Shown here piece after piece: positions 3,909 to 36,800 of a DNA stretch of 64,000 nucleotides. The number at the start of each line of letters is the position of its first letter. Positions within the stretch are counted from its first letter, which is position 1. The notes under the pieces were generated by a model, which saw only the letters and a list, made by a program, of their open reading frames with translations, searched no databases and was not told the DNA's origin. Position numbers and translations under genes: made by a program. The stretch is from an uncultured Chloroflexia bacterium (GTDB taxonomy: Bacteria; Chloroflexota; Limnocylindria; QHBO01): contig CAWEQC010000003.1 of NCBI GenBank assembly GCA_963811145.1, positions 785,511-849,510 of the forward strand, read 5' to 3'.

Positions 3909-6900
3909 CGACGGCGCCGTCCGGCTGGGTGAGCGGCAGGAGCCCATCGGCGCCGAGCGACTTCAGCAGGGCGATCACCTCGCCGGGTCCGATCGCATCG
4001 GGTGCCAGGTGCTGCTCGTCCAGCATGCAGAGCACGAGCTGGAGCGGCAGACCCAGCGTTTCCCAGGCCGAGCGGGCTCGGCGATAGTGCGAGTGGGCGT
4101 CCTGGCCGCTGATCGCGGCCAGCCCGGCGTCCATGGTCATCAGCGTCGCCTCGGTGGCGCGCCCCCACGTGCCGGACCCGCCCATGCCTGCGACAACGGC
4201 GGCCGCTGACTCTCGATCGCCTCCCCACAGCGCTGCGCGTGGAGCCAGCGCCCGCTGGTAGGCCGGATCGTTCCCGACGTACCCCTCGGTCGCCTCCTGG
4301 GCAAGGCGTCGCGCGGGCTCGAACTCTCCGGCGACGAACGCTGCCCAGGCGCGCGCCTGTCGCACGCCGGCGACCACCTGGCGGTCGGTATCGGCCGGGA
4401 GCGGCTCGAGCTCGTCGAGGGTGTCCATCGCGTCGGGTGCCCCGCGAAGCGTCCGGATGATCGCGGCGGTGGCCGTCAGTACGATGCGAAACGTGTCGGC
4501 CATCCCGCGCTGCGTCAGCTCGTCGATCACCTCCAGGGCCCACTCCCAGTCGCCCGTCTCGATCGCCGCGGTGCTCGCGATGTCGGCGAGGGGTACCGCG
4601 ATGTCCCCCAGCCCCATCGCGGTCGCCAGCTCCAGTCCCAGCCGGGCGGTCTCCATGGCCGCCCGCGGATCGTCGCCGAGCAGCGCCCATGCCTCGTTGT
4701 TGCGCGCCCGAAGCTCGGTGTGCAGCAGTCCGGCCTCCTGCGCCTGCGCGATCGCGGCGCGCAGGTCGGCAAGTCCGGCCTCCTCCTCTCCGAGAGCGAA
4801 CATCGCGGTCCCGCGCGTCACGCGGAGATCGGTCGCGATGCCGGTCAGCTCGAGGTGCTGTGCCGCGGCCAGCGCGCGGTCGGCCCACGTCAGGGCCTCG
4901 CGATCGTCGCCCACCAGCGTCCGCGCGCGCGCGAGCTCCGCCGCCAGGGCCACGCCCGAAGGGTCGGCTTCCCAGTTGCGCACGGCGCGGATGGCGGCCT
5001 CGAGCTCCGCCAGAGCCGGCTCGTTGCGCTGAGCGGAGAGCATCACGCTGGCGAGCCGCGCACGGGATCGGGCTGCCTCCTGTGGCTGGCCCGCGGCGCT
5101 CTGGAGCTCGATCAGCTCCCGCAGATACTCCTCCGCGACCTCCAGGCGGCCGGCCGCCTGCGCAGAGTCTGCTGCCTCCCCCAGAAGCATCGGTCTCTGC
5201 CCGACTGCCCCCACGCGTAGAGCGGTCTGGAGCAGGCCGAGCGCGCGCTCGGGAACGTGCAGCGCCATCGCGCCACGGGCCGCGCTGCGGAGCGCGGCAA
5301 CCGCGCGTCGCCCGAGGCGATCCGCCTCACGGGATTGGGCGGTGAGCTGATGCGCCTCGACCAGATGGCCTGCCAGCTGTTCGGCGACGTCGTCATCGAG
5401 CGCCTCGAGGTAACGAGCCGCCGCCAGGTGGAGCGCGCGCCGTTCCGTCCTCGCGAGCGTGTGGTAGGCCACCTCGCGCACCAGGTCCTGCACGAAGCCG
5501 AGCTCCCCGTGACCGGGGGAGCTGAGCTCATCGTTGACGGCCAGCAGCTCGCGGCGAAGGAGGCCATCCGTGAGCTCGCGCGTGCGGGCCGCATCTCCCC
5601 CTGCCACCGTGACCAGCGCGTCCGGGCGGAAGCGGTGTCCGAGCACGGCCGCGGCGAGCAGGAGCCGTCGTTCGTCCGGTGGCAGCGAGTCGATCCGTGC
5701 CGCAATCAGCCCGTGGAGCGAATCGGGCACATCGATCTGGCCCACCTGCGTCCCACCTGCGCCGGCCGCCGGGCGGCGGTCGCTCAGCATTCGCGCGACC
5801 TCGACCGCGTAGAGCGGGACGCCGCCGGCGTGCTCGAGAATCGGCTGAACGAGGCCACGCGGCAGATCGGGCGCGCGCAGCGCGAGCAGCTCGCGCATCG
5901 CGTCGTCGGGCAGGCGCTCCAGGCTGATGGCGGTGAAGCTGCCGGCCCCGGCGCCCCACGACGGGTGATGGTCGAGGAGCTCGGGGCGCGCCAGCGCGAG
6001 GATGAAGATCGGGTGCGACCTCGACCACGTCGCCATGTGCTCGATGAAGTCGACCAGGCTGGGATCGGCCCATTGGAGGTCCTCGAAGACGAGGACGACC
6101 GGCGTCCGCTCCGACAGCCGCTCGAAGAACCGCCGCCAGGCAGCGAAGAGCTCGTCGCGATCGAAGGCGCCGGCATCCTCCCGTCCCAGCAACGTCGCGA
6201 GCCGCGGCTCGATCCAGTGTCGTTCGGCGTCGTTGCGGATGAGCTCCTCGAGCGCGATTCCCAGCTGCCGTCGGGCGAGCTCGGGCGGCGCGCCATCCCC
6301 GATGCGGGCGCGCCGGCGGATCATCTGGGCGACGGCGGAGAACGCGATCCCCTCCCCGTAGGCCAGCGCCCGGCCGTCGTGCCATGCGATCTCGTCGGGA
6401 TGCTCGTCGACCCATCGGTCAAGCTCCCACGCCAGCCGGCTCTTGCCGATTCCGGCGATGCCGGTCACCGACACCAGGCGGCTGCGACCGTCGCGCATCA
6501 CGGCGCTGAGCAGGCCGGTCAGCTCGTCGAGCTCGCGATCGCGCCCGACCAGGCGCCCGGTGTGCACGCCGCTGCTTCCGCCGGCGGTACCGTGCTCGGC
6601 GCTCGTCGCCCGGAAGGCCTCGAGCCTGCCGGTCCTGCCCTTGAGCTGAAGCGATCCGACCCGCCGATACGACGCCGAGGTCGCCGCCCGGTCGCGAGTG
6701 GTCCTGTCGACCAGCACGCCGCCGACGGGCGCTCGACTCTGGAGACGCGCTGCCACGTTCACGAGGTCGCCGGCGACCATGCCCTGGCCCGTGGCGCCGA
6801 TCGTGACCGCGGCCTCCCCGGTCGTCACGGCGGCGCGGCTGCGCAGAGCTCGACCCGATGCGGCTCCGCCCATTCGATCGACCGCGTAGACGATGGCCAG

Positions 6901-7344
6901 TGCCGCGCGCACAGCCCTCTCGGCATCATCCTCGTGGGCGAGGGGCGCGCCCCAGACGGCCATCACCGCGTCGCCGATGAACTTCTCGATCGTGCCCGCG
7001 TACGTCGCGACGATCGATCGCGCCACCTCGAAGTAGCGCGACTGAACGGAGCGCACCTCCTCGGGGTCCATCGACTCGGCCAGCGCCGTGAAGTTGGCAA
7101 GGTCGACGAACAGCACCGAGATGCGACGCCGTTCCGCCACCGGAACGGGCTCGGCGTCCGCTGGCTCGCTCGCGGGTTTCGAGTCGCGGGGCGCCCATAC
7201 CGGCTTGCCACATGAGATGCAGAACCGTGCATTGGACGTGAGCTCGGCACCGCAGTGCGGGCACGCCCGGGCGAGCATGCTCCCGCATGACGCGCAGAAC
7301 TGCGCCGCCTCCGGGTTATTCGATTCGCACGACGGGCATCGCAT
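3784..7344 (-). CDS. Double zinc-ribbon, class III adenylate/guanylate cyclase, STAND AAA ATPase and TPR-like protein
   Basis: Four N-terminal CxxC pairs; LFVDLANFT, EKFIGDAVMAVWG, GDLVNVAARLQ; Walker A GIAGIGKS; Walker B VFEDLQWAD; GGVPLY; helical C-terminus. Confidence 0.9.
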   Translation of the reverse strand: MRCPSCESNNPEAAQFCASCGSMLARACPHCGAELTSNARFCISCGKPVWAPRDSKPASEPADAEPVPVAERRRISVLFVDLANFTALAESMDPEEVRSVQSRYFEVARSIVATYAGTIEKFIGDAVMAVWGAPLAHEDDAERAVRAALAIVYAVDRMGGAASGRALRSRAAVTTGEAAVTIGATGQGMVAGDLVNVAARLQSRAPVGGVLVDRTTRDRAATSASYRRVGSLQLKGRTGRLEAFRATSAEHGTAGGSSGVHTGRLVGRDRELDELTGLLSAVMRDGRSRLVSVTGIAGIGKSRLAWELDRWVDEHPDEIAWHDGRALAYGEGIAFSAVAQMIRRRARIGDGAPPELARRQLGIALEELIRNDAERHWIEPRLATLLGREDAGAFDRDELFAAWRRFFERLSERTPVVLVFEDLQWADPSLVDFIEHMATWSRSHPIFILALARPELLDHHPSWGAGAGSFTAISLERLPDDAMRELLALRAPDLPRGLVQPILEHAGGVPLYAVEVARMLSDRRPAAGAGGTQVGQIDVPDSLHGLIAARIDSLPPDERRLLLAAAVLGHRFRPDALVTVAGGDAARTRELTDGLLRRELLAVNDELSSPGHGELGFVQDLVREVAYHTLARTERRALHLAAARYLEALDDDVAEQLAGHLVEAHQLTAQSREADRLGRRAVAALRSAARGAMALHVPERALGLLQTALRVGAVGQRPMLLGEAADSAQAAGRLEVAEEYLRELIELQSAAGQPQEAARSRARLASVMLSAQRNEPALAELEAAIRAVRNWEADPSGVALAAELARARTLVGDDREALTWADRALAAAQHLELTGIATDLRVTRGTAMFALGEEEAGLADLRAAIAQAQEAGLLHTELRARNNEAWALLGDDPRAAMETARLGLELATAMGLGDIAVPLADIASTAAIETGDWEWALEVIDELTQRGMADTFRIVLTATAAIIRTLRGAPDAMDTLDELEPLPADTDRQVVAGVRQARAWAAFVAGEFEPARRLAQEATEGYVGNDPAYQRALAPRAALWGGDRESAAAVVAGMGGSGTWGRATEATLMTMDAGLAAISGQDAHSHYRRARSAWETLGLPLQLVLCMLDEQHLAPDAIGPGEVIALLKSLGADGLLPLTQPDGAVVNPGGAPPRPARSRPPNDGTARRTGAGRRPPRATGRPAPPG

Positions 7345-7384
7345 GAGCCACCTGCCACCGCGGGCGGGTCAGCGCCCTCGGTCG

Positions 7385-22526: not shown

Positions 22527-23087
22527 TCAGGCATCGAAGTCAGGATGGCGGAAGCAGTCGAGCAGGTGATCGTTGACGAGGCCGGCCGACTGCATGAGGG
22601 CGTAGCAGATGGTCGGGCCCACGAACGGAAGCCCCGATCACGGAGCTCGCGCGACATCGAGCGCGAGGCGTCGGTCTGGGCAGGAAGCTCGTCCATCGTG
22701 CGCCATCGGTTCACCACCGGTGTACCGCCCACGAACGACCAGATGAGCTCGACCGGGTCGTCGATGCTCGCGCCAGGCCGCAGCATTGCCGATGAACGCG
22801 TTGACCTTGGCGCGGTTTCGCACGATGCCGGGATCGGCGAGCAGTCGGGCCCGGTCGTCGTCGCCGTAGGCGGCCATGCGCTCGACGTCGAAGTCATCGA
22901 AGGCGGCGCGATACCCCTCGCGCTTGCGAAGGATCGTGATCCAGGCGAGCCCGGCCTGGGCACCCTCGAGGCAGAGGAGCTCGAAGAGCCGATGCGGATC
23001 GCGCATCGGGACTCCCCACTCGGTGTCGTGGTAGCCGATGAGGAGCGCGTCGGTGCCCGCCCAGGGGCAGCGGGGCGGGTCGGTCAC
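22527..23087 (-). CDS. tag: DNA-3-methyladenine glycosylase I (frameshifted)
   Basis: RCPW, YHDTEWGVP, LFELLCLEGAQAGLAW, GIVRNRAK, C-terminal NDHLLDC Zn motif. Confidence 0.92.
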
Positions 23088-24450
23088 AGGCCGAGCACGG
23101 CCCGCGCGATGAGGAAGTAGATGACGAGCCCGCTCGCGTCGACCAGGGTGGTGATGAACGGCGCGCTCATGACGGCCGGGTCGACCCCGACCCGCGGGCG
23201 ATCAGCGGCAGCAGGGAGCCGACGAAGGCGGCCAGGGTGCAGACGGCGAGCAGCGTCAGGCTCACCACGATGCCGATGTCGCGCCCCGCGAAGATCCATG
23301 CGGGTCCGAGCGCCAGCAGGCCGAGCATGCCGCCGAGCAGGAGCCCGACCCGCGCCTCGCGCAGGATCACGCTGCCGAGGTCGTCGTAGCGCACCTCGCC
23401 GACCGCCAGGGCGCGGGTCACGGTGGTCGCCGCCTGGGCTCCCGTGTTGCCACCGGTGCCGATGATCAGCGGGATGAAGAGGGCCAGCGTCACGACCTGG
23501 TGCAGGGTCCCCTCGAAGACCTGGAGCACGTTCACGGTCAGGGTGGCGGCGACGATCAGGAAGAGCAGCCAGACGACGCGGGAACGGGCGATCTGCAGCA
23601 CCGAGGTGCTGAGGTACGGGCGGCCCAGTGGCTCCGCGCCACCGGCGCGTGCGACGTCCTCGGTCACCTCCTCCTCGAGGACCTCCATCGCGTCGTCGAC
23701 GGTGACGATGCCCACGAGGCGGTCCTCGTTGTCGACGATCGGCAGCGCCAGCAGGTCCGCCTCGCGAATCAGGCGCGCAACCTCCTCCTGGTCGGCGTCG
23801 ACGCGCGCCGAGTACACGTCGGTGTCCATGAGCTCGCCGACCGGCGTCTCCGGATCGGCCAGGACGAGGTCTCGGAGCCCGAGCGCGCCGACCAGGCGAC
23901 GATGATCGTCGGTGACCGGCAGCGCGTAGATGGTCTCGGCGGATCGGCCGATGCGCCGCAGCCGATCGAGCGCCTCGCCGGCGGTCATGCCGGCGCGCAG
24001 GCTGGCAACCTCCGGCGACATCAGGCGGCCGGCCGAGTCCTCGGCGTACCCGAGCAGCGTCGAGGTCAGGCGCCGCTCGTTCGGCGAGAGCCCGGCGAGC
24101 AATCGCCGCGCGACCTTCGCCGGCATCTCCTCGGTCAGGCGCGCGCGGTCGTCCGGGTCGAGATCCTCGAAAAGCTCGCGCACGTTCGTCTCGCGCAGCG
24201 CCTCGAGCAGCTCCTGCTGCAGCGATGGGTCCAGGAGCTCGAAGACCTCGAGCGCCCGATCCTTGCTCAGGAGCCGGAATGGCACGGCGCGCTGCTCGCG
24301 CGGCAGGCGCGAGAGCTCGTCCGCGATCTGGACCACGCCGACCTGCCCGAGCCATCGGTCGATGAGCTCGAGGTCGCCGTCCTCGAGCAGCTCGTCGAGC
24401 TCGACGGTGGGGACAGCGTCCGGGGTGCCGGTCAGCGTCGGTCGAGTCAC
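23084..24450 (-). CDS. mgtE: Magnesium transporter MgtE (frameshift near 23195)
   Basis: N-domain, CBS pair (SAGRLMSPE, LVGIVTVDDA), FIPLIIGTGGNTGAQ, DPAVMSAPFITTLVD. Confidence 0.93.
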
Positions 24451-24482
24451 GCCACGGAGGATAGCCGCGCACGACGCGCCAG

Positions 24483-24511
24483 GACGCCCGGACCGTATCG
24501 GCCCGGGCGTC
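24483..24511. terminator. GC-rich hairpin downstream of the small ORF at 24528-24735
   Basis: GACGCCCGGACCG-TAT-CGGCCCGGGCGTC. Confidence 0.5.
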
Positions 24512-24527
24512 TTCTGTGCGGCTGAGG

Positions 24528-24735
24528 TCAGTAGGGGTAGTTCGTGAGCCTCGGCATCCAGTCGGTTGACCGGTGCATCAGCCGCATGAGCAAGCTCGTG
24601 GCGGATCGTGCGAAGCATCGAGCTGATCCTGCCGCCCCTGCCGGTCCTCCGCTCCGACCGTGACGGCCGACTCGGAGGCGGCGAGAAGAACGAGAAGTCG
24701 CTCAGGCCGATCGCCATTGCGCGTGCTGCTGTCAT
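24528..24735 (-). CDS. Small protein of about 68 aa ending ...WMPRLTNYPY (one apparent extra base)
   Basis: Strong RBS GAAAGGAGG before ATG 24735; removing one base near 24565 gives TGG ATG CCG AGG CTC ACG AAC TAC CCC TAC TGA, followed by a hairpin. Confidence 0.5.
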
Positions 24736-24849
24736 CGTGCTGCCTCCTTTCCGTTGAGTGCTATCTGACACCGCCATGATCCCCGGCCCGACGTGCGCCG
24801 GCCACGGCCAGTGGTCGCGGTTCGTCCCCGATGTCGGGACGATGCCGGC

Positions 24850-24861
24850 CTACGTCATCCG
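24850..24861 (+). promoter_or_regulatory. Candidate response-regulator binding motif, copy 2
   Basis: CTACGTCATCCG immediately upstream of the TATGCT -10 (24866-24871) of the cyclase-REC-LuxR gene. Confidence 0.5.
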
Positions 24862-24876
24862 TCGGTATGCTTGCGG

Positions 24877-26115
24877 GTGGAGGACGCCGAACCAGCGACG
24901 CGCCATCTCACCTTCCTGTTTGCCGACGTGGAGGGCAGCACGCGCCTGGTCGAACACCACGGCGCCGATGCCGGCACGGCGCTGTCGCGCTACCACGAGC
25001 TGGTCGAATCGCATTCCGCACGCCGCGGCGGGCGGCTGTTCGAGCGCATCGGTGACGGCGCCTACGCCTGCTTTCCCTCGACGCGTCGGAGGCCGTCGCT
25101 GCGGCCGACGACATCCAGGACGGCAATCGCGGATCATGACTGGGGCGATGTCGGGCGCATCCGCATTCGAATCGCGCTGGTGAGCGGCGAGGTCGAGGTG
25201 CAGGGCGATCGCTTCTACGGGCGAGCACTGTTCCGTGCCGCGCGGCTGCAGGCCTTCGCCAAGGGCGGCGAGACGCTGATCGCCGGAAGCACCGTCGCGG
25301 AGCTGGGCGGGGCGCTGCCACCGGGGACCATCCTCCGCGACCTCGGCACGCAGCGGCTCCGCGACGTCCCGGAGCCGGAACGGGTATTCGCGCTGGTGCA
25401 TACTTCCCGCGCCCGTTCCAGTGACGCGGCCCAGGCGGACGAAGCCGAGATGCAGGGGACCGATACGGTGATTGACGAAGAAGGGCCGATCCGCGTGCTG
25501 CTCGTCGACGACCACTCGGTGGTGCGACGCGGCCTGCGCGGTTTCCTGGAGCTCCTCAAGGACTTCGACGTGGTCGGAGAGGCGGAGAATGGTCGCGAAG
25601 GCGTCGCGGCGGCCGACCGGCTCGCCCCCGACGTGATCCTCATGGACCTGCTCATGCCCGAGATGGGCGGCCTCGAGGCCATCGCGGCCATCAAGCAGGC
25701 GCATCCCGAGATCGAGATCGTGGCGGTCACCTCGTTCATCGAGGAGGAGAAGGTGACCTCCGCGCTGGAGGCGGGAGCATCGGGCTATCTGCTCAAGGAC
25801 GCCGAGGCCGAGGAGGTGGCGCAGGCGATCCGCGCCGCGTATAACGGCGAGGTCCACCTGGATCCGGCCGTTTCGCGCCTGCTGGCGCAACGACTCCGCC
25901 AGCGGAAGGACGCCGAGCCGATCGAGCCGCTCACGGCGCGCGAGAAGGAGGTCCTCTCACAGCTGGCCAAGGGCGCCAGCAACAAGGAGATCGCCTACGA
26001 GCTGGGCATCACCGAGCGCACAGCACGCACCCACGTCTCGAACATCCTCGGCAAGCTGGCGCTGGCCTCGCGGACCCAGGCCGCCCTGTACGCCGTGGAG
26101 CACAAGCTGGTCTGA
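24877..26115 (+). CDS. Class III nucleotide-cyclase domain, REC and LuxR/NarL HTH fusion response regulator
   Basis: LTFLFADVEGST, ERIGDG, RAARLQ, RDLGTQRLRDVPEPERVF, then IRVLLVDDH, ILMDLLMP, GYLLKD, LTAREKEVL, SNKEIA, HVSNILGKL in one ORF. Confidence 0.85.
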   Translation: MEDAEPATRHLTFLFADVEGSTRLVEHHGADAGTALSRYHELVESHSARRGGRLFERIGDGAYACFPSTRRRPSLRPTTSRTAIADHDWGDVGRIRIRIALVSGEVEVQGDRFYGRALFRAARLQAFAKGGETLIAGSTVAELGGALPPGTILRDLGTQRLRDVPEPERVFALVHTSRARSSDAAQADEAEMQGTDTVIDEEGPIRVLLVDDHSVVRRGLRGFLELLKDFDVVGEAENGREGVAAADRLAPDVILMDLLMPEMGGLEAIAAIKQAHPEIEIVAVTSFIEEEKVTSALEAGASGYLLKDAEAEEVAQAIRAAYNGEVHLDPAVSRLLAQRLRQRKDAEPIEPLTAREKEVLSQLAKGASNKEIAYELGITERTARTHVSNILGKLALASRTQAALYAVEHKLV

Positions 26116-26134
26116 CCCCGACGGGCATGGCGAA

Positions 26135-26158
26135 GGCGGGCCGGTTTCCCGGCCCGCC
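26135..26158. terminator. Hairpin between convergent genes
   Basis: GGCGGGCCGG-TTTC-CCGGCCCGCC, a perfect 10-bp stem with a GAAA loop on the minus strand. Confidence 0.65.
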
Positions 26159-26175
26159 CATCGGTGCGGTGGTGA

Positions 26176-26604
26176 CTAGGCGGTCTGACGGAAGCGCTCC
26201 GGAACGATCGGCTCGACCGAATTGAGCGCCGACCGGACCAGGCCCATCGGGCTGCCGTAGACGCGGATGACGTCCACGACGAGCAGCGTGACCAGGGCGA
26301 CCTCGATGCCCTTGGCGATGAAGCCGAGGGTGAAGTAGGGGCCCATCACCAGGTAACCGGCGATCGTCATGAGCGTGTAGCCGATGAGCGCCAGGCGCGG
26401 GAACCAGCTGAACCGCTCCACGGTCGCCACCGGGGCGGCGGCGCCGATCACGATCAGCGCGGCCAGGCCAAGGTAGCCGAGCGCGTTGAGGGTGAAGAGC
26501 AGTCCACCGAGGGTCGAGTGGATGTATGCCGTCGCGAGGGTGAGCCCGACGATGGCGACGGTGAGCACGGCGCCGGCGGCGCGTGTGCGCAGGAACTGGG
26601 GCAT
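26176..26604 (-). CDS. Four-TM hypothetical membrane protein
   Basis: RBS GGAGG; MPQFLRT...LATAYIHSTLGGLLFTLNALGY...GFIAKGIE. Confidence 0.75.
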   Translation of the reverse strand: MPQFLRTRAAGAVLTVAIVGLTLATAYIHSTLGGLLFTLNALGYLGLAALIVIGAAAPVATVERFSWFPRLALIGYTLMTIAGYLVMGPYFTLGFIAKGIEVALVTLLVVDVIRVYGSPMGLVRSALNSVEPIVPERFRQTA

Positions 26605-26779
26605 TGCGGGGACCTCCGTTCGGATGAGGGCTCGATGCCCGCGTCGGCATCGGTTCGCAGTGGCTGACCGAAGTCTCACCGCGATGGGTCGGGGTGGAAT
26701 CGGCCATCCGGGGCAGGGCTTCGCAAGACATATGACTGTAGGAGCCGCTCGCGCGGGATGGCGTATCCTCTGCGCCCTC

Positions 26780-29700
26780 ATGACCCGCGCCCCGTCCCGC
26801 CCGAAGCCGAAGACGCCGGTACGCGCGATCCGCGAGCAGCCGGACAGCCACGCGCTGCTGTCGCGCGCCGTCGAGGAGGCCGCCCGCCTGTTGAACGCGG
26901 ATGGCGCAATGGTCTACCTCGTCGACCGGGATCAGGGCCGGCTCCAGTTCGCGGTCGATGCCGGCATCAGCAACGCCGAGGCTCGCCAGCTGATCCGCGA
27001 CCTGTCGCTACCGGTCGGCGTCGGCCTCTTCGGCCACGCGATCGCGACCCGCGAGGTGGTCGTCTCGGGAGACTACCGGCGCGACAAGCGCTTCCCCCAT
27101 TCGCCGGTCGCGGACCGGATCGTGACCATCACCAACATGCGCTCGATGGTCGCCGCGCCCCTCATCGCCGAGGGCGACGTGCTCGGTGCGCTCGGGGCGT
27201 ACTCGTCGCAGATCGACGACTTCGACGAGGCCGAGGTCGCCCTTCTGCGGGCCCTGGCCGATCACGCCGCCGCAGCCATTGCCAACCAGCGCCTCATCGA
27301 ACGCCTCGCGCGCTCGCAGGAGGAGCTTGCGCGACGGGTCGAGGCGCAACGCACGCTGGGCGAGATCGCGGCCAGCATCGCGGTCATCCGGCAGCCCGGC
27401 GAGATCCTGCACTCGGTGGTCGACGCCGCCCGACGGCTCATCGGCTCCGACGGCGCGCACCTGACGTTGATGCAGCCAGGCGGGCACGTCCTGCGACCGA
27501 CGGTCGTGGTCGGCGGCAACGCCGCATGGACGGAGGACTGGCTCGCGCAGCTCGACTTCCCGGTTGACGGGGGAATCAACGGGCTTGCGGCAGCGCGTGG
27601 CGAGGTGATCCACACGGAGGACTACCTGCTCGATCCCCGGATTCCGCACGACGAGGCCGACCAGTCGGTCGCGGAACGACTGGCCCTGCGTGGCATGGCC
27701 GCCGCGCCGATGCTCGCGCCCGGCGGCGAGGTGATCGGCACCCTGGCCGTCTCGTTCGGGGCACCCCATCGGTTCAGTGACGACGAGCTCACGCTGCTCC
27801 AGGGGCTGGCGGACCAGGGTGCCATCGCCATCTCGAACGCTCGCCTGACCGAGGAGCTCGAACGGTCCAGGGAGCAGTACCGATACCTGGTCGACGAGTC
27901 GGTCGACATCATGTGGTCGATCGACGCCGACATGCGGTTCACGTACATCAGCGACAGCGTCGAGCGCATGACCGGCTTCCGGCCCGACGAGCTCATCGGC
28001 GAGCATGTCTCGATCGCCACCGCGCCGGAATCGATGGACCTCGTGGCGGCCACCTTCTCCGAGCTTCGCGAGCACCCCGAGCGCGTGTACCGGCTCCGGA
28101 TTCTCGAGCCGCGCAAGGACGGAAGCATGCTGCCGGTCGAGATCCGGGCGACGGGCATCATGGATGCCGACGGCCGGCTGACCGGCGCGCACGGCACCAA
28201 CCGCGACATCACCGAGATCGCGCGCCTCGAGCAGGACCTGCGGGAGCAGGCGGATGAGCTCGCCCACCGCGTCGAGGCCCAGCGCACGCTGGCCGAGATG
28301 GCCGCGCAGCTGACCTCGCTGCGCGATCCCTCGGCCGTGCTCGAGCAGACCCTCACCGCCGCCGTGCGGCTGCTCAAGGGCCACGGCGGCCAGATCGGCA
28401 TGGTGGCTGCCGACGCCGAGGGCATCGTGCGCTGGGGGGATGGCCAGTCGCTCGTCAACGATGAGCTCGTCGCGTTCACCGAGCGTGATCACACCAGGGC
28501 CGACGACGGCGTCTCCGGTCGGGCGATCCAGATCGGGCGCGCCACGTGGACGGACGACTACCTCACCGATGACTCCTTCACGCACGAGGCGCTGTCGGAC
28601 GCCGTCGCGCGCGATCTCGGCATCCGTGCCGTGGTTGCTGCACCGCTGCTCGGCGAGGATGGGCCGATGGGCGCCATCGGCGTCTTTGCACGGACCCCCG
28701 GGGCTTTCGGCGCCGATTCGGGCGAGCTGCTCGGTCTGCTCGCCGACCAGGCGGCGATCGTGCTGGCCAATGCCAGCCTCAACGCTGAGGCGGAGGTCAC
28801 GGCCGAGAAGCTCGCTCACCAGGTCGAGGCGCAGCGAACCCTGGGTGAGATCGCGGCCTCGATCACGTCGCTCCGCGACCCCTCAGCCGTCCTGAGCCGC
28901 GCGGTGGCGGAGGCGAAACGATTGCTCGACGCGGAGCACGTCGTCATCCACCAGGTGCGCGCCGGGACGACCGAGCTCGCCGACTACCGCGAGGCCCTCG
29001 GCGCCGGGGGAGCCGCGCGACCGGTCGAGGAGACCGTCGTCAGCATCGGCCAGGGCATCGCCGGGCGGGCGGTTGCCGAGGGAACCGTGGCGTGGACGGG
29101 CGACTACCTCGTCGACGAGTCGTTCACGCACACAGCGCGCGCCGACGAGTGGATCGGACGCTACGGCTATCGGTCGCAGATGAGCGCGCCGCTGATCGGC
29201 GAGTCGGAACCGCTCGGGGCGATCAGCGCGTATTCGTCGCGGCCGAACGCGTTCGACAAGGACGACGCCGAGCTGCTCGGAGCGCTCGCCAGCCAGGCGG
29301 CGATCGTGCTGGGCAACGCGCGCCTGTACGAGGAGCTCGAGCGCCGGGTCGAGGCACAGCGCTCGCTCGGCGAGATCGCGGCGCGCATCACGGCCATCCG
29401 CGATCCGGGCGACGTCCTGCAGCGAACGCTCGACGAGGCCGTGCGGCTCCTGGACGCCGACGGCGGCAGGATCGAGCTTGTGGCTGCCACTGGTGGGCTG
29501 CACTGGGCATTCGGCCACTCTGCCATCGACCTGCCGATCGAGCGGGACGAGACCGCCGACCCGGTCGAGCTCAACGAGGGCGTCTCCGGGCGCGCGGTGA
29601 TCGAGCGACGGGTCGTCCGCACCGGCGACTACCTTGCCGATCCCGAGTTCACCCATACCGAGGCGCCCGACCGCTACATCCGCCAGCACGGGATCCGATC

Positions 29701-31936
29701 CGTGATGAGCGCGCCGCTGATCGGCGAAGACGGCGCGATCGGCTCACTGACCGTCCACTCCCAGGCCCGTGACGCGTTCGACGCCGCAAACGCGGAGCTG
29801 CTCGAGGTGCTGGCCAGCCAGGCGGCCATCGCCGTCACCAACGCCCGTCTCTACGAGCAGCTCGGCGAGGAGTCGGCGGCTCTGGCCCGCCAGACCGACT
29901 CGCAGCGGCGGCTGCTCCAGATCAACCAGCAGCTCCTCTCGACGCTCGAGCCCGCCAGCGTCCTCGAGCTGATCGCCGACGGCCTCAAGAGCGTGGTCTG
30001 GTACGACAACCTCAGCGTCTATCGGGTCGACGAGGAGGATCACGGGGGGACCCTGAAGCCGATGCTGGCCCGCGACGAGCGCTACGCCGAGGAGCTGCTC
30101 GGCTTCTCGATCCCGAGGGGTCAGGGCCTCACCTGGTGGACGGTCGAGCACCGCGAGCCGATTCTCCAGAACGACGCGCTCAGCGATGCGCGCCTCATCC
30201 AGATCCCGGGGACGCCGCTCGACGACCAGGCGATCATCATCGTTCCGCTGGTCAGCGGCGACGAGGTCATCGGCGCCATGAATATCGGCCGCATGGGCGG
30301 CAGCGAGGTGGCGTTCACCGAAGCGGATTTCGAGCTCGTCCAGCTCTTCGCTGCGCAGGCCGCCGTGGCGATCACGAACGCTCGCCTCTGGGAGGAGCTT
30401 CGGGAGCGCTCCGACGCCCAGCGCAGCCTGGCCGAGATCGCGGCCCAGATCGCCTCGCTGCACGACCCGCTGACCGTGATCCAGCGGGCGGTCGCCGATG
30501 CCGCACGGCTTCTGCGCGCCGACCGCGCCCAGATCAACCTGGCCGCCGAGGGCGGCGAGCATCTCGAGCGACCGATCGCGGCCGCCCCGCTGCCGCCGTC
30601 ACCTGACGACGTCGTCGTGCCACTCGGCTCGGGCATTGCCGGCATGGCCGCCGCGGAGCGCCGCGTGCGCTGGACCGGGGACTATCTCGGCGACGATGAC
30701 TTCCCGCACGACGAGGGTGACGCGCGCATCGAGGCGCAGGACATCCACTCGATGATGTCGGCGCCGCTGGTCGGCCCCGATCGCCTGATCGGCACCATCA
30801 CCGTCCAGTCGACCGCCACGAACGCATTCAACGCCGGGGACGCTGAGCTGCTCAAGCTGCTCGCCGACCAGGCGGCCATCGCGCTGACGAACGCTCGCCT
30901 GTACGCCGAGGTCGAGGAGTCCGAGCGCCGATATCGCCACCTCGTCGACAACTCGCCCGACATCGTGTGGAGCGTCGACGCCGACGGCAACTTCAGCTTC
31001 TTCAGCGATTCGCTCGAATCGCGGACGGGCTGGAAGCCGGAGGAGCTCCTCGGCCGCCCGTTCGGCGCGCTGGCTTCAGAAGGGGAGCTTGCCCCGGCGA
31101 TCGCCGCGTTCGAGCTGCTGAAGCTCGATCCGGATCGGGAGCAGCGTTTCCGTCTCGACCTTCCGCTGCCCGACGGCCGCATCAGCCAGACCGAGGTCGC
31201 CATGACCGGCACCATCGTCGATGGCCGCTTCGCCGGTGCGCACGGCTCGGTCCGCGACATCAGCGAGCGCGAGCGGCTGGCGGGCGACCTGCGCGACCAG
31301 GCCGCCGAGCTCGCGGCCAGCCAGGAGCGGGCTCACCTGGCGCGTGAGCTGCACGATTCGGTGACGCAGGCACTGTTCAGCATGGGGCTCACGCTCCGCA
31401 CCCTCGAGATCCTGATGGCCTCGGACCCCGAGGCGGCGCGCGGCAAGCTGGTCGAGCTGCGCGAGCTCCAGAAGGACGCGCTGGCCGAGATGCGAACCCT
31501 CATCTTCGAGCTGCGACCGTCGAGCCTGGAATCCGATGGGCTCGTGCAGGCACTTCGCACGCACGCCACCGCCGTCCAGCGTCGAACGGGCCTCACCATC
31601 GTGGTCGACGCGGAGCCGATCGAGCGCCTGGCCCTGCCGGCCGAGGAGGCGCTGTATCGGATCGGGCAGGAGGCGCTCCACAACGTCGTGAAGCATGCGA
31701 ACGCCTCGAACGTCACGCTGCGCATCGTTGCCGACGGCAGTCGCGTGCTGCTGAGCGTCACCGACGACGGGGTCGGCTTCGCGCCGGACCAGGTGCCGCG
31801 CGGCCATCTCGGCCTCATCGGCATGCGCCAGCGGGTCGACCTCGTGGGCGGCGAGCTGCGCGTCGAGAGCAAGGCCGGTGGCGGCACCTCCATCGAGGCG
31901 GCGGTGCCGATTGGCGAGGACACCTCGGCCGAATGA
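26780..31936 (+). CDS. Cytoplasmic multi-sensor histidine kinase: GAF-GAF-PAS-GAFx5-PAS-HisKA_3-HATPase (1718 aa)
   Basis: Seven repeats ending LAxQ/HA...NAR/QL, two PAS units (YRYLVDES...RDITE; YRHLVDNSPD...RDISER), ERAHLARELHDSVTQAL, YRIGQEALHNVVKHA, DDGVGF, HLGLIGMRQR; no TM segment, no frameshift. Confidence 0.93.
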   Translation: MTRAPSRPKPKTPVRAIREQPDSHALLSRAVEEAARLLNADGAMVYLVDRDQGRLQFAVDAGISNAEARQLIRDLSLPVGVGLFGHAIATREVVVSGDYRRDKRFPHSPVADRIVTITNMRSMVAAPLIAEGDVLGALGAYSSQIDDFDEAEVALLRALADHAAAAIANQRLIERLARSQEELARRVEAQRTLGEIAASIAVIRQPGEILHSVVDAARRLIGSDGAHLTLMQPGGHVLRPTVVVGGNAAWTEDWLAQLDFPVDGGINGLAAARGEVIHTEDYLLDPRIPHDEADQSVAERLALRGMAAAPMLAPGGEVIGTLAVSFGAPHRFSDDELTLLQGLADQGAIAISNARLTEELERSREQYRYLVDESVDIMWSIDADMRFTYISDSVERMTGFRPDELIGEHVSIATAPESMDLVAATFSELREHPERVYRLRILEPRKDGSMLPVEIRATGIMDADGRLTGAHGTNRDITEIARLEQDLREQADELAHRVEAQRTLAEMAAQLTSLRDPSAVLEQTLTAAVRLLKGHGGQIGMVAADAEGIVRWGDGQSLVNDELVAFTERDHTRADDGVSGRAIQIGRATWTDDYLTDDSFTHEALSDAVARDLGIRAVVAAPLLGEDGPMGAIGVFARTPGAFGADSGELLGLLADQAAIVLANASLNAEAEVTAEKLAHQVEAQRTLGEIAASITSLRDPSAVLSRAVAEAKRLLDAEHVVIHQVRAGTTELADYREALGAGGAARPVEETVVSIGQGIAGRAVAEGTVAWTGDYLVDESFTHTARADEWIGRYGYRSQMSAPLIGESEPLGAISAYSSRPNAFDKDDAELLGALASQAAIVLGNARLYEELERRVEAQRSLGEIAARITAIRDPGDVLQRTLDEAVRLLDADGGRIELVAATGGLHWAFGHSAIDLPIERDETADPVELNEGVSGRAVIERRVVRTGDYLADPEFTHTEAPDRYIRQHGIRSVMSAPLIGEDGAIGSLTVHSQARDAFDAANAELLEVLASQAAIAVTNARLYEQLGEESAALARQTDSQRRLLQINQQLLSTLEPASVLELIADGLKSVVWYDNLSVYRVDEEDHGGTLKPMLARDERYAEELLGFSIPRGQGLTWWTVEHREPILQNDALSDARLIQIPGTPLDDQAIIIVPLVSGDEVIGAMNIGRMGGSEVAFTEADFELVQLFAAQAAVAITNARLWEELRERSDAQRSLAEIAAQIASLHDPLTVIQRAVADAARLLRADRAQINLAAEGGEHLERPIAAAPLPPSPDDVVVPLGSGIAGMAAAERRVRWTGDYLGDDDFPHDEGDARIEAQDIHSMMSAPLVGPDRLIGTITVQSTATNAFNAGDAELLKLLADQAAIALTNARLYAEVEESERRYRHLVDNSPDIVWSVDADGNFSFFSDSLESRTGWKPEELLGRPFGALASEGELAPAIAAFELLKLDPDREQRFRLDLPLPDGRISQTEVAMTGTIVDGRFAGAHGSVRDISERERLAGDLRDQAAELAASQERAHLARELHDSVTQALFSMGLTLRTLEILMASDPEAARGKLVELRELQKDALAEMRTLIFELRPSSLESDGLVQALRTHATAVQRRTGLTIVVDAEPIERLALPAEEALYRIGQEALHNVVKHANASNVTLRIVADGSRVLLSVTDDGVGFAPDQVPRGHLGLIGMRQRVDLVGGELRVESKAGGGTSIEAAVPIGEDTSAE

Positions 31937-31941
31937 CGTAG
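31926..31941 (-). promoter_or_regulatory. Candidate response-regulator binding motif, copy 3 (inverted)
   Basis: Reverse complement CTACGTCATTCGGCCG matches copy 1 at 15/16 positions; overlaps the kinase stop codon, about 60 bp upstream of the REC gene. Confidence 0.5.
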
Positions 31942-32000
31942 GCGAGCGTCGGGCGGATGCCCTCTAGGCGGCTCGCCTTTAGGAAGCTAGGCTCGTTTAC

Positions 32001-32399
32001 ATGTCCGCCACTCAGCGCCCCACTCTGCCCACGTCGCCGCGGGTGGTGATCGTCGATGCGGATCGTCGCGTCCAGCAGAGCCTTGCCGACCTCCTGGGCG
32101 TGACCGGCGAGGTCCGCGTGGTTGGTCGCGCCGGTGACGTCCGCGCCGCCCTCGAGCTGGTGGAGGAGGAGCGCCCGGATGTCGTGCTGGTGGATCCGCG
32201 GCTGCCGGACATCGAGGCAGGTCTCGCGCTCATCGCGGGGCTTGCTCGCGCATGGCCATCGATGCGCGTCGTGCTGACGGGCTGGAGCGACACGGAGGGC
32301 CACGCGCCGCTCGCGGCGGGCGAGGCCGCCTACGTGAGCAAGAGCGCGAGCCCGGAGCGATTCGCCGAGGCCATCGTCGACGCCTGCTGCCCGGCCTAG
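32001..32399 (+). CDS. Stand-alone receiver-domain protein
   Basis: RVVIVDAD, PDVVLVDPRLP, VVLT, YVSKS. Confidence 0.8.
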   Translation: MSATQRPTLPTSPRVVIVDADRRVQQSLADLLGVTGEVRVVGRAGDVRAALELVEEERPDVVLVDPRLPDIEAGLALIAGLARAWPSMRVVLTGWSDTEGHAPLAAGEAAYVSKSASPERFAEAIVDACCPA

Positions 32400-33461
32400 A
32401 GCTCCATCGCCGTCCCGGATGGCGCCGGGATCGGCCGGGATCGGCGTCAAGGTTCCCTCATCGGCCTGGACCGCGTCCGGATCCTTGAGGCCATGACCGG
32501 TCAGCACGCAGACCACCGTCTCGCCTGCGCCGATGCGCCCTTCGCGCGCGAGGCGTCGCACGCCCGCGACGCCGGCCGCTGAGGCAGGCTCGCAGAAGAC
32601 GCCCTCGAGCCGCACGATCAGGCGCTGGGCCTCGAGGATCTCATCGTCGCTGACCGCCTCGATCAGGCCGCCCGATTCGTCGCGCGCGGCCACGGCCGCC
32701 TGCCACGAAGCCGGGTTGCCGATGCGGATGGCAGTGGCGACCGTCTCGGGCGCCTCGACGGGCTCGCCGCGTACGATGGGCGCGGCGCCTTCCGCCTGGA
32801 AGCCAAGCATCCGCGGCAGCTTCGCGTCGGGGGTGCGGCCCGCATCGGCATACGCCCTGAAGCCGGCCCAGTAGGCGGTGATGTTGCCGGCGTTGCCGAC
32901 CGGGAGCGCCAGCGAGTCGGGAGCCCGGCCCAGCGCATCGACGATCTCGAAGGCGGCCGTCCGCTGCCCGGTCAGTCGGTCGGGGTTGATCGAGTTGACC
33001 ACCACCGCCAGGCCCTCCTCGCCCAGGCGACGCACGGCGGCCAGCGCCACGTCGAAGTTTCCGTCGACCATGATCAGCCGCGCGCCGGCAGCGAGTGCCT
33101 GGATCAGCTTGCTGCGCGCCACCTTGCCGGCCGGCAGGATCACGTGGCACGGCAGCCCAGCCGCCGCCGCGTACGCCGCGGCGGATGCGCTGGTGTTGCC
33201 GGTCGACGCGCAGACCACCGCCCGAGCGCCCGCGGCCACCGCCCGGTTCACGGCCAGCACCATGCCACGATCCTTGAACGAGCCGGTCGGGTTGGCCCCC
33301 TCGAACTTGAGGTACAGCCGCTCGACGCCGATCTCGGCGCCGAGGCGCCTGGCGCGCATCAGCGGCGTGCCGCCCTCGCCGAGCGAGATCGGAAATGATT
33401 CGCCGTCCTCGGCGATCAGGTCGCGGTAGCGCTCCAGGAGCGGCTGCAGGTGGGGCGTCAC
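32396..33461 (-). CDS. thrC: Threonine synthase (apparent frameshift in the last codons)
   Basis: SLGEGGTPL, KFEGANPTGSFKDRG, CASTGNTSAS, PVGNAGNI, ETVATAIRIGNP, EGVFCEPASA, LTGHGLKDPD. Confidence 0.94.
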
Positions 33462-33500
33462 GACACGGAGTATAGGAAGGCGCGGACATGATCGGCCGCG

Positions 33501-33887
33501 ATGCGCTGGCTGTCCGCCGCGCTCCTCGTGGCCGTCAACACCATCCCGCTCATCGGCGTCGCCCTTCTTGGGCTGGTGCTTGTGGTGATCTTGGTCCTCT
33601 ATTGGATCGAGTCGGCGATCGTCGGCATCGTCGACGTCCTCAAGATCGCGCTGGCGCGCGCGGCCCCTCAGTCACGGGTTATATCAGTAGTGATATATCG
33701 CCTGACAGTGGCGTCCCACCGAGCGTCTGCGTGTACGGCTGGAGTCAACTCGCCTGGAAGGGGACGGGCGCCGATCAGTTCGGCGACTTGTGATCCCGGG
33801 ATTGGTCGTCGGTCGTCACCCGTTCAGTGCCCCGTGAGCGCCTCGCGGACGATGCGTGCCTGCTCGACGTGGTGCGCCGCCGGATAG
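33501..33887 (+). pseudogene. Probable truncated DUF6498-like membrane protein fragment
   Basis: LLVAVNTIPLIGVALLG...LYWIESAIVGIVDVLKI resembles the DUF6498 N-terminus; protein-like sequence ends where the 38-bp element starts (33671). Confidence 0.5.
33671..33708. repeat. 38-bp AT-rich imperfect palindrome, copy 2
   Basis: GTCACGGGTTATATCAGTAGTGATATATCGCCTGACAG; core TATATCA-GTAG-TGATATA is a perfect inverted repeat. Confidence 0.85.
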
Positions 33888-36800
33888 CCCTCCGCGGGGC
33901 GAGAGCGCTCGGGACGCGAGATGTCGCCGAGCGGGATCTTGTACGGCACGAGGTGCCGGATCCGTGGCAGCACGAACTTGCGCGCGCCCATGTTGCGCGG
34001 CTCCTCCTGGACCCATGCGAACGACTCGATCTTCGGATAGCGATCGAGCACCGCCTGCAGGTCGGTGTCCGGGAAGGGGTAGAGGCGCTCGACCCGGACG
34101 ATCGCGACGTCCGGGGCATCCTCGCATCTCCGGAGCGCCGATCAGGTCGTAGTAGATCTTGCCGCTGCAGAGCAGGATTCGGCGGACCTTCGCGGCCGCC
34201 TCCGCATCGGCGGCGGAGCGCGGGTCATCGAGGACGCTCTGGAACGCGCCGGTCGTGAGCTCTGACGTGCGCGAGGCCGCCTCCGGCAGGCGGAGGAGCG
34301 ACTTGGGGGTCATGACCACGAGCGGTCGCGCGTCGCGGTGGCGCGCCTGACGGCGCAGCAGGTGGAAGTACTGAGCCGGCGTCGTCGGATAGACGACACG
34401 GATATTGCCCTCGGCGCCGAGTGCCAGGAAGCGCTCCAGCCGGGCCGACGAGTGCTCCGGGCCGGAGCCCTCGTAGCCGTGCGGCAGGAGCAGGGTGAGG
34501 CGTGAGGTCAGCCGCCACTTCGCCAGCCCGGATACCAGGAACTGGTCGATGATGATCTCGGCCCCGTTGACGAAGTCGCCGTACTGCGCCTCCCACAGCA
34601 CCAGCGCGTCCGGCGCGGTGACCGCGTACCCGTACTCGAACCCGAGCGACGCGTACTCGGAGAGCGGGGAGTTATGGAGCTCGAACGCCGCCTGTGAGCC
34701 GGGCAGGTGCTGGAGAGGCACGTACCGCTCCCCGGTGATCGCGTCCCAGAGCGCCGCATGTCGCTGGCTGAACGTGCCGCGCGCCGTGTCCTGGCCGGTC
34801 AGCCGGATCGGTGTCCCCTCGTCGAGCAGCGTGGCGAAGGCCAGCAGCTCCGCGTGCCCCCAGTCGATCCGCGGCTCGTCGTCGCCCAGGGCATCCGCCC
34901 GACGCTTGAGCTGCTTGCCGAGCTTGGGGTGAATCGTGAATCCGTCCGGGACGGTCGCGATCGCAGCGTTCAGCTTGCGCAGCCGGCGCAGCCTGCACGG
35001 CGGTCTTCGGCTCCGTCTCCTTCTGCTGCGGGATCGCCTCCGAGCCGCGGTCGAGCTCGCCCTCGCTCTCGTCGGTCCCCTTGCGCAGCGACGCCTGGCG
35101 CGCCGCCAGGTCGCGCTGCGCCTCCTTGATCCTGGCCTCGGCTTCGGCCGCCGTGATGGCCCCGACCTCGACCAGCTGGGCCTGGTAGAGCTCGCGAACG
35201 CTCGGGTGCTCGGCGATCCGGGTGTACATCGCGGGCTGGGAGTAGGCCGGCTCGTCGCCCTCGTTGTGCCCGTAGCGCCGGTAGCCGACCAGGTCGATGA
35301 CGACGTCGTGCCCGAACGCCTGGCGGTACATCATGGCGAGGCGGGCGGCCGCCAGGCACGCCTCCGGGTCGTCGGCATTGACGTGGACGATCGGCGCGTC
35401 GAAGCCCTTGGCCAGGTCCGAGCTGTAGGCGGTGGAGCGGCCCTCGCGCGGACCGGTCGTGAAGCCGACCTGGTTGTTGGCGATGAGATGAACGGTGCCG
35501 CCGGTGCTGTAGCCGTCGAGCCGTGCCAGGTTAAAGGTCTCCGCGACCACGCCCTGCGCGGCGAAGGCGGCGTCGCCGTGGATGAGCAGCGGCAGGGTGG
35601 ATGCCGGCGCCGTCGTTGCGGCCGGCACGGAACGATCCGTCTGATCGGCGCGCGTGCGGCCCTCGATGACCGGGTCGACGGCCTCCAGGTGGCTCGGGTT
35701 CGGGGAGAGCACCACGCGCACCTCCTCGTCATCGGCGGTGAGGTAGCCGCCCTCGGCGCCGAGGTGATACTTCACGTCGTCGAGGCCGCCCTTCGGCGCC
35801 GTGCCTGCGTCACCACCGGCCCGGCCGGCCTCGAACTCGGCGAGGATCGCCTCGTAGCTGACACCGACGACGTGGGCAAGCACGTTCAGCCTGCCACGGT
35901 GCGCCATCCCGATCATCACCTTGCGGGCGCCCTGGTCGGCGGCATCGCCGATGATCACGTCGAGCATCGGCACCATGGCATCGAGGCCCTCGATGCTGAA
36001 CCGCTTCTGCCCGAGGTACGCCTTGTGAAGGAAGCGCTCAAGCGTCTCGACGCTGATCAGCCGCTCCAGCAGCGCGACCTGGTCCTCGACCTGCATCGGC
36101 AGCCGATGCTCGCCCGACTCGATGATCCGTCGCAGCCAGACCCGCTCCTCGTGCGAGCCGATGTGCTCGACCTCGTAGGCGATCGTGCCGCTGTAGGTCT
36201 CCTGGAGATGGGGGAGCGCGTCGGCAAGCGTCTTCCCGGGGACGTAGATGCGCATCAGCTCGGCCGGGACCGTCCGCATGTTCTCCGGGGTCAGGCCCAA
36301 TGGCGCCGGATCGAGCGCCGGGTCGCCGGCCGGCTCCGAGCCGAGCGGATCGAGCCGGGCGGCCTTGTGCCCGAAGTAGCGGTACGCCTTCACCAGCGCC
36401 ATCCCCGCTGCCACCGCCTTGAGCCGCTCGCGCTGCTCGCCCTCGGTTGCGGTGACTTCCGGCGCGCCCGCCGACTCGGCCGGCGACGGCATCGGCTCGT
36501 CGGTCGTCACGTCCGCGGTCCTGGCACCCAGGTCGCCGAACAGGTCGGCAAAGAAGCCGTCCTCGCCTGAGAGGAGCGATTCCGATGCGCCGCAGGAATG
36601 CCCCGGACTCCGCGCCCTGGATGATCCGATGGTCGTAGGTCGAGGTGATCGTCATGCGCCGATCGCCGCCGACGCTGCGAATCGTGCCGGTGGCGACGAT
36701 CGTGCCCTGGTTCGGCATCAGGCGCGGCACGCTGGCGGTGGTGCCGAGCGTGCCAGGGTTTGTCAGGGTGACGGTCGCGCCGGCGAAGTCGTCCGGCGAC

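Follow-up and report, generated by a model that had tools for sequence, protein, structure and literature searches.

The central finding of this work was a gene in which a class III cyclase-homology domain (CHD) is joined in one reading frame to a complete NarL-type response regulator, that is, a receiver (REC) domain followed by a LuxR-type helix-turn-helix (HTH) domain. The gene (24877..26115, plus strand) lies in a stretch of 64,000 nucleotides, called here the window (G000:C3:785511-849510), from the genome of an uncultured soil bacterium, which was assembled as 2.69 Mb in five contigs and is 86% complete; the names of its nearest relatives assign the bacterium to the class Candidatus Limnocylindria of the Chloroflexota. 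Downstream of it on the same strand are the genes of a large soluble histidine kinase (26780..31936) and of a single-domain receiver (32001..32399), and all three were present as a preliminary description of this DNA, made from the letters alone, had reported them. We hypothesize, with a probability of roughly 0.42, that the CHD is a working, dimer-dependent site for purine nucleoside triphosphates (NTP), a non-canonical cyclase coupled to dimerisation of the receiver. This reading is preferred because all the residues that bind metal and phosphate and the transition-state Arg are kept in the domain, and only those that read the base and the ribose have changed.

The frame of the regulator is open from 24793 to 26115, and a GTG start at 24877 yields a protein of 412 aa, identical to the called protein P0004; the usual length of the orthologues, 411 aa, supports the scale of this call. 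From the N- to the C-terminus the protein consists of the CHD (aa 7-175, 24895..25401), an acidic tether predicted to be disordered (aa 178-203, 25408..25485), the receiver domain (aa 205-320, 25489..25836; Pfam 98.2 bits) and the GerE/LuxR-type HTH domain (aa 351-406, 25927..26094; Pfam GerE 70.9 bits). The in-frame union of a cyclase domain with a complete REC-HTH unit that had been proposed earlier was thus found again in an intact frame, with its domains recognized by Pfam, phmmer and Foldseek. The receiver carries D211, D212, the phospho-acceptor D257, T285 and K307, all invariant in a 47-row orthologue alignment except T285, which is nearly so. Having the acidic pair, acceptor Asp, Thr/Ser and Lys of a receiver and, after it, a GerE HTH domain, the regulator belongs to the NarL/FixJ family, and it stays below the NCBIfam equivalog cut-offs for NarL (194.1 vs 250), MctR (176 vs 300) and MadR (164 vs 300).

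The nature of the N-terminal domain was established by fold as well as by sequence. Pfam Guanylate_cyc (PF00211) matches the CHD with 16.3 bits over residues 9-73 only, short of the cut-off of 21.9. Searches of the PDB with phmmer retrieved 3mr7 (E 2.7e-10, residues 10-181), Ma1120 (1.3e-8) and Rv1900c (2.2e-6), and the weaker matches included trypanosomal GRESAG4, Rv1264 and CyaB (10 distinct sequences, E up to 10). An AlphaFold2 model of the regulator, built on the 47-row alignment, reached a mean predicted local distance difference test score (pLDDT) of 78.8, with most of the CHD at 81-91, and Foldseek aligned its CHD with Ma1120 (template-modelling score 0.84-0.88, root-mean-square deviation 2.4-2.5 Å) and Rv1900c (0.85), and its REC-HTH half with LiaR (5hev, 53% identity), VraR (4gvp, 47%) and also NarL and DesR. 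Judged by these matches and the predicted fold, the N-terminal domain is clearly a true class III CHD despite its sub-threshold Pfam score. Residues 178-201 of the tether have a pLDDT below 50 and hold 8 Asp/Glu against 2 Lys/Arg, and the CHD would therefore hang on a flexible tether. A complex prediction with two copies of CHD residues 1-180 scored 0.18 against a mark of 0.42; it gave no verdict and is not used either way.

The fusion is real and not an artefact. In a word-indexed protein search covering five source labels (ena, jgi, lgn, ncbi and nr), the fused protein was found in at least 120 clusters of 398-468 aa, with 80-100% identity over 97-100% of the query. Eighty related loci from species-representative genomes were classed with hidden Markov models (HMMs) built from the orthologue alignment: in 36 the CHD, REC and HTH are intact in one frame, in 7 the CHD is partial or frame-shifted, 34 have no CHD, and in 3 the REC-HTH match is incomplete. 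Four soil runs, which belong to three studies, supplied Logan short-read contigs (spanning 25369-25574, 25387-25599, 25390-25572 and 25357-25507) that bridge the tether with 1-5 substitutions and zero gaps, and between 25081 and 25813 no indels were reported in the short-read contigs; none of the sequencing runs contains more than 0.25 of the sampled words. A stop or frameshift in the linker, or homologues existing only as separate genes, had been named as grounds for giving up the fusion; the contigs cross the linker without an indel, and fused homologues occur as single genes. The supposition that assembly or gene calling joined two genes, to which the frame breaks of this assembly in the neighbouring mgtE and sucA genes might lend some colour, is consequently refuted by the colinearity of 36 independently assembled loci, by the clusters with their five source labels and by gap-free bridging of 25357-25599, and its probability is negligible.

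The residue assignments of the preliminary description hold on HMMER alignments to solved CHDs. D17 (FADV) and D60 (IGDG) are the two metal-binding Asp residues; E56 occupies the place of the base-reading Lys (K101 of Ma1120), R112 that of the specificity Asp (D157 of Ma1120) and F119 that of the transition-state Asn (A164 of Ma1120), while the transition-state Arg is retained as R123 and the FxDxxGST phosphate loop is kept along with the metal Asp pair and this Arg. Against the canonical adenylyl and guanylyl cyclases, the domain has the metal Asp pair; it lacks a canonical base-reading pair (for ATP Lys with Asp or Thr, for GTP Glu with a small residue), E56 being like that of guanylyl cyclases and R112 like neither, and of the transition-state Asn and Arg it has only the latter, Phe119 standing for Asn. 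Nor does it match the PADLOC model of the Pycsar pyrimidine cyclases (PycC) significantly, the match being weak (15.5 bits, E 0.0022) and over the first motif only. This unusual pocket is strictly conserved. In the set used for conservation and selection (37 sequences, from 36 related loci and the window), D17, E56, D60 and R123 are present in 37/37 and R112 in 36/37, and position 119 is Phe in 32, Tyr in 4 and Pro in 1. Among the clusters listed, D17, D60 and E56 are found in 120/120 and F119 in 117/120, and every position of FERIGDGAY (F55-Y63) is conserved to at least 98%, with A62 in 119/120. The median pairwise ratio of non-synonymous to synonymous substitution rates (dN/dS), computed from 666 pairs (644/666 usable for the tether), was 0.29 for the CHD, 0.63 for the tether, 0.048 for the receiver and 0.070 for the HTH. 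By these comparisons of coding sequences, purifying selection acts on the CHD, whose non-canonical site is fixed, and it does so less tightly than on the regulator core.

The open frame of the kinase runs from 26486 to 31936, and its start lies at Met99 (26780), since orthologues align from residue 1 of that start, which gives 1718 aa. A Pfam scan of overlapping 190-aa windows located seven GAF domains (aa 22-168, 207-351, 515-662, 699-844, 874-1019, 1058-1198 and 1237-1369), two PAS domains (aa 365-479 and 1384-1494), a HisKA_3 domain (aa 1516-1583, with His1525; 61.7 bits) and a HATPase_c domain (aa 1622-1711; 54.3 bits). The motifs HDSVTQ at 1525, HNVVKHA at 1634 (N box) and DDGVGF at 1662 (G box) are those of a HisKA_3 kinase. 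Hydropathy analysis detected no transmembrane segment, just one of the 19-residue windows reaching 1.6, and the multi-GAF, soluble architecture claimed from the letters was thereby confirmed. A link between these GAF domains and cyclic nucleotides, which had also been suggested, fared less well. The NKFDE motif is the signature of GAF domains of the phosphodiesterase or CyaB type that bind cyclic nucleoside monophosphates (cNMP), and a regular-expression search of the kinase found no NKFDE-type motif, not even an NK dipeptide; therefore nothing supports cyclic-nucleotide binding by its GAF domains. GAF3, 4, 5 and 7 (within aa 515-1369, about 28322-30886 of the window) show 40-51% identity among themselves, an indication of internal duplication. 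A GDY-x-x-D-x-x-F-x-H motif and a recurring AQRTL-x-EIAA linker are also common to these four domains. The length of the kinase varies between orthologues, which seem to have gained and lost GAF domains. The receiver-only gene reported after the kinase begins 64 bp behind it and encodes 132 aa (Response_reg 52.9 bits) with a full phospho-acceptor set as read from the translation (D19/D21, D65, T93 and K114); the protein is 52-87% identical across the related loci.

Gene neighbourhood ties these proteins together, as the preliminary description had supposed. In 24/36 intact loci the fused regulator is followed by a membrane-protein gene, the kinase gene (matched at both ends) and the REC gene. 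Where the downstream DNA extends for 7 kb or more, this set was recovered in 23/24 loci; in the sole exception (L017) the start of the kinase is present and the fetched DNA stops before its end. In three distant relatives (L071, L073 and L075), the kinase, REC and regulator genes lie in that order on one strand with short gaps. HisKA_3 kinases are established partners of NarL-type regulators, and together with the synteny this supports one pathway with two receivers, in which the kinase would be paired with the regulator and pass phosphate to it. The distance of about 0.7 kb given earlier between regulator and kinase agrees with the spacing of 0.66 kb, but this spacer is not empty, as it holds an opposite-strand gene (26176-26604, minus strand), and therefore the two genes do not form one operon here.

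The spread of the fused form was traced in two samples of genomes. In a class sample of 401 genomes, fused matches were counted by hand among the matches listed (150 rows, 27 more matches existing), a scope that applies to all counts from this sample. An uninterrupted match (from residue 11 or before to residue 410 or beyond) was found in at least 45/401 genomes, all belonging to the family of the window (f1): 35/51 other genomes of the window's genus have the fused form, and 9 genomes with it fall in genera g3, g5, g6, g12 and g14. The 45 include genomes G312 and G096; G294 and G123 have truncated forms, and G156 is without a CHD. In family f3 the match of G321 (46-412) is broken by a TGA, and matches are otherwise of REC-HTH only. 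In an even sample of the phylum, also of 401 genomes, colinear CHD and REC matches (E up to 1e-35) occurred in 6 genomes, all of f1, and G531 gave REC matches only. More distantly, clusters P0130, P0139, P0147, P0184 and P0190 have the same three-domain order with 36-39% identity overall; these pass Pfam PF00211 (27-59.7 bits), and their pocket residues differ.

Among the relatives the CHD has been lost repeatedly. In eight loci (L041, L042, L044, L045, L049, L050, L051 and L076) it is deleted or truncated and the rest of the locus is kept, and in 8/51 genomes of the window's genus the regulator starts at query residue 141-237. In the loss loci mgtE lies directly upstream and the REC-HTH is still 91-95% identical; CHD remnants were recognized in L041 (residues 141-186) and L042 (residues 154-188), and none in L044, L049, L051 and L076. 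The loss forms are scattered in a nucleotide tree of REC-HTH, a tree of low resolution and without support values, and are read as several apparently independent deletions. A sister family of CHD-REC proteins (P0293-P0320; L093 8619-9641) of 308-340 aa is without an HTH, retains the FERIGD signature and has His or Phe at the Asn position. Its genes lie elsewhere in the genome, in unrelated contexts and without a kinase, and the proteins occur in genera (g7, g11 and g16) whose syntenic regulator is without a CHD. Such genes were seen in L093, beside a FabI-like gene, and in L094, and in their distribution they complement the fused form. In the receiver tree, the CHD-REC proteins and the syntenic regulators form one clade with Shimodaira-Hasegawa-like support of 0.93 (within it, the CHD-REC clade has 0.78 and the regulator clade 0.69). 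This topology fits a single origin of CHD-REC, followed by loss of the HTH in one paralogue and of the CHD in several regulator lineages. The best CHD paralogue in the genome (C3:8441-10699, minus strand; L002) is 40% identical in the CHD, has the same Glu/Phe/Arg and continues into a P-loop/STAND ATPase, and a CHD-STAND ATPase regulator is the likely source of the domain by sequence; the signature is accordingly either older than the fusion to a receiver or unconnected with it. Domain accretion has a hotspot at the N-terminus of this regulator family. Other N-terminal additions were seen in its REC-LuxR relatives P0154, P0264 and P0161, which show BTAD/Trans_reg_C, a Ser/Thr kinase and a second receiver.

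The cyclase domain of the regulator is one of many in this organism. About 35 CHDs scoring above 125 bits with an iterated HMM were counted in the 2.69 Mb genome, a number that marks the Limnocylindria, an uncultured lineage abundant in soil, as unusually rich in cyclases for a genome of this size. One of the CHD proteins, of 1194 aa, is encoded in the window (3787-7368, minus strand). Many of the paralogous CHDs carry His in place of Asn and form part of large proteins of the STAND type. None of the 36 paralogues tabulated has a substituted metal Asp, one having a gap at the first position, and a dedicated, C2-like partner CHD without metal Asp was sought among them and not found. One paralogue (C3:317931-319457, minus strand) has Glu/Gly/Asn/Arg, the pattern of bacterial guanylyl cyclases, and signalling by cyclic GMP (cGMP) may exist in the organism. 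The genome also has 8 cNMP_binding matches in at least 7 places, and by its gene content the organism clearly uses cyclic nucleotides.

How the parts may work together can be outlined as follows; catalysis, substrate, phosphotransfer and the coupling to dimerisation are what we infer, beside the anatomy, conservation, selection, synteny and history laid out above. The cytoplasmic HisKA_3 kinase would gather signals through its seven GAF and two PAS domains and phosphorylate two targets, the downstream single-domain receiver and the upstream LiaR/NarL-type regulator. Phosphorylated receivers would pair, two CHDs would meet and their interfacial sites would assemble, as in PleD, and one phosphorylation event could in this way switch on both DNA binding and a non-canonical, probably GTP-using, cyclase; in the reverse direction, which we prefer less, CHD dimerisation could favour pairing of the regulator. 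Class III active sites form only across a CHD dimer, and with a flexible tether the simplest coupling would therefore be proximity. Regarding the substrate, class III cyclases use a Lys that donates to N1 of adenine and an Asp that accepts from N6, and guanylyl cyclases have Glu in the first position. Glu56 and Arg112 form a charge-swapped mirror of Lys/Asp, with which they could accept from N1-H of guanine and donate to O6; we therefore predict, by analogy, a pocket for guanine or hypoxanthine rather than adenine. As evidence of inactivity, the replacement of Asn by Phe weighs less than was implied, since Ma1120 is described as an active cyclase with a natural Ala at this position, in which A164N lost activity; by the same account, the K101E mutant of Ma1120 retained adenylyl cyclase activity in part and acquired activity as a guanylyl cyclase (PMC4215837). 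The more specific form of our hypothesis, in which the CHD is a phosphorylation-gated, active cyclase led by its Glu/Arg pocket and aromatic ribose contact to make cGMP or another cNMP that is not cAMP, and the CHD-REC paralogues are messenger-only regulators of the same new subtype, is a tentative possibility.

A working cyclase gains support from the CHD-REC family, which retains the signature without an HTH, leaving the CHD as the only candidate output there. Several observations weigh against it. The CHD falls below the Pfam cut-off for cyclases; its dN/dS is about six times that of the receiver; it precedes the receiver in the chain and hangs on a tether of predicted disorder, where regulated cyclases usually have helical linkers, so that any coupling would be left to proximity alone; an opposite-strand gene parts the regulator from the kinase gene, and co-expression is not a given; and close relatives have deleted the domain while keeping the rest of the locus, so the CHD is dispensable. 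To our knowledge, moreover, neither Phe in the place of the ribose-contacting residue nor Arg in that of the specificity Asp has a precedent. The main alternative is a CHD that binds Mg-NTP, probably GTP, or simply dimerises, without cyclising anything, so that its dimerisation, possibly nucleotide-dependent, would be a second input that aids or replaces phosphorylation in the pairing of the regulator on DNA. Binding alone would also require conservation of the metal and phosphate sites, the place of the ribose-orienting Asn is taken by a bulky aromatic residue, the flexible tether suits a proximity clamp, and a dN/dS of 0.29 with repeated loss suits an accessory modulator. This clamp or sensor is a tentative but serious possibility, which ranks close behind the working cyclase. 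Pseudo-enzymes, however, usually lose catalytic Asp or Arg residues, and here the metal Asp residues and the Arg are invariant in 37/37 sequences; the CHD-REC paralogues offer such a modulator no DNA-binding domain to act on, and Ma1120 shows that Asn can be dispensed with (PMC4215837).

Two other explanations appear unlikely. The CHD could form half of a heterodimer, pairing with another of the approximately 35 CHDs of the genome as mammalian C1 does with C2, in which case it would give its metal Asp pair to the Lys, Asp, Asn and Arg of the partner and tether a cyclase to the regulator. Its C1-like character, with the Asp pair intact and the base and ribose readers altered, and the many canonical paralogues available would agree with such a pairing; the tabulated paralogues nevertheless offer no dedicated C2-like partner, none of them having a metal Asp substituted, and no CHD gene is syntenic with the locus, so that we hold this arrangement to be improbable. 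No more credit is due to the idea that the CHD is a passenger captured from a CHD-STAND regulator, neutral or decaying, on an otherwise ordinary NarL-type regulator. The repeated deletions in relatives whose REC-HTH stays 91-95% identical speak for it, as does the genomic STAND ATPase paralogue with the same Glu/Phe/Arg signature as a likely source, but a dN/dS well below 1 and below the 0.63 of the tether, and site residues invariant over the 37 sequences and the 120 clusters listed, weigh against it.

The locus as a whole has the order mgtE (minus), regulator (plus), membrane protein (minus), kinase (plus), receiver (plus) and thrC (minus), in a region with a G+C content of about 70%. The gene between regulator and kinase (26176..26604, minus strand) was characterized by tblastn and hydropathy as a conserved membrane-protein gene of no known family. 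Its product of 142 aa has three strongly hydrophobic stretches by hydropathy, with four helices read by eye from the sequence, and is found by tblastn in almost all related loci with 58-87% identity, aligned from residue 1-3. Neither Pfam nor PADLOC assigned it to a family, and its matches in the protein atlas are Chloroflexota hypothetical proteins only, of 142-143 aa. The divergent intergenic region between this gene and the kinase contains a perfect inverted repeat, GATGCC-N6-GGCATC (26634..26651), 30-47 nt upstream of the membrane-protein gene, which was considered as an operator or hairpin; kept in 21/48 aligned related intergenic regions and with 40 genome-wide matches to a loose pattern, it remains a weak candidate. 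The 13-mer GATGGCGTATCCT directly before the kinase start is also conserved among the sequences shown. Rfam gave no match at gathering scores between 22000 and 34000. Two plus-strand frames (32533-32874 and 32878-33429) that at first seemed syntenic are antisense frames of the minus-strand thrC, whose own frame (about 32480-33530) continues stop-free to 31815, antisense through the receiver gene. Both mgtE (23084-24777, minus strand) and sucA (2-oxoglutarate dehydrogenase E1; 33816-36510, minus strand) are split over at least two reading frames, which are probably assembly indel errors rather than pseudogenes.

All parts of the fused regulator are of known kinds, and nothing in it overturns current understanding; its importance depends on whether the CHD is enzymatically active. 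Response regulators normally have a single output, and cGMP signalling is rare in bacteria. An active CHD would represent a new solution to substrate reading in class III cyclases, with Glu/Arg mirroring Lys/Asp, and the regulator would couple transcription to a diffusible messenger. If the domain only binds nucleotide, it would be a natural pseudo-cyclase serving as a ligand-gated dimerisation clamp on a transcription factor. On the sequence evidence, well-understood modules are combined in the regulator in an unstudied order, and the pocket of its cyclase domain is both distinctive and strictly conserved. The earlier impression that no regulator with this domain order has been characterized agrees with a full-text literature search, subscription journals being outside its scope, which found no paper on a CHD-REC-LuxR regulator; the sole paper found to combine these three terms describes, in its available text, CHD+LuxR and not the CHD-REC-LuxR order (PMC3466318).

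In that text, the mycobacterial proteins Rv0386, Rv1358 and Rv2488c make up the 'CHD+LuxR' sub-family, and Rv0386 is credited with an alternative mode of substrate binding (Santos et al. 2012, PMC3466318). Proteins of the Rv0386 type resemble the window regulator in beginning with a class III CHD and ending with a LuxR-type HTH, but they carry an ATPase of the STAND/AAA kind with repeats in the middle, where the window regulator has a receiver and hence control by a histidine kinase. The base-reading residues of Rv0386, which we take to be Gln/Asn, differ from the Glu/Arg found here. LiaR of E. faecium (5hev) and VraR of S. aureus (4gvp) are alike in their REC-HTH, the complete Asp-Asp/Asp/Thr/Lys set being present in the window regulator; unlike it, they are without an N-terminal domain, and their kinases are small membrane-embedded sensors, in contrast to the soluble, multi-GAF protein of 1718 aa encoded here. 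The nearest solved folds to the CHD are Ma1120 of M. avium and Rv1900c of M. tuberculosis. Both Ma1120 and the window CHD are without the transition-state Asn, but Ma1120 keeps Lys, Asp and the small Ala where the window CHD has Glu, Arg and a bulky Phe. The CHD-REC proteins of the Limnocylindria have the same CHD signature and sister receivers, without the HTH and in other contexts. Cyclases regulated by a receiver are known as REC-CHD, such as cyanobacterial CyaC, and as REC-GGDEF in PleD. As in the window regulator, these place a receiver and a dimer-dependent cyclase fold in one chain, and the logic proposed here, activation by phosphorylation-driven dimerisation, would be alike; the window regulator departs from them in its reversed domain order, in a linker predicted to be disordered and not helical, and in the addition of a DNA-binding output.

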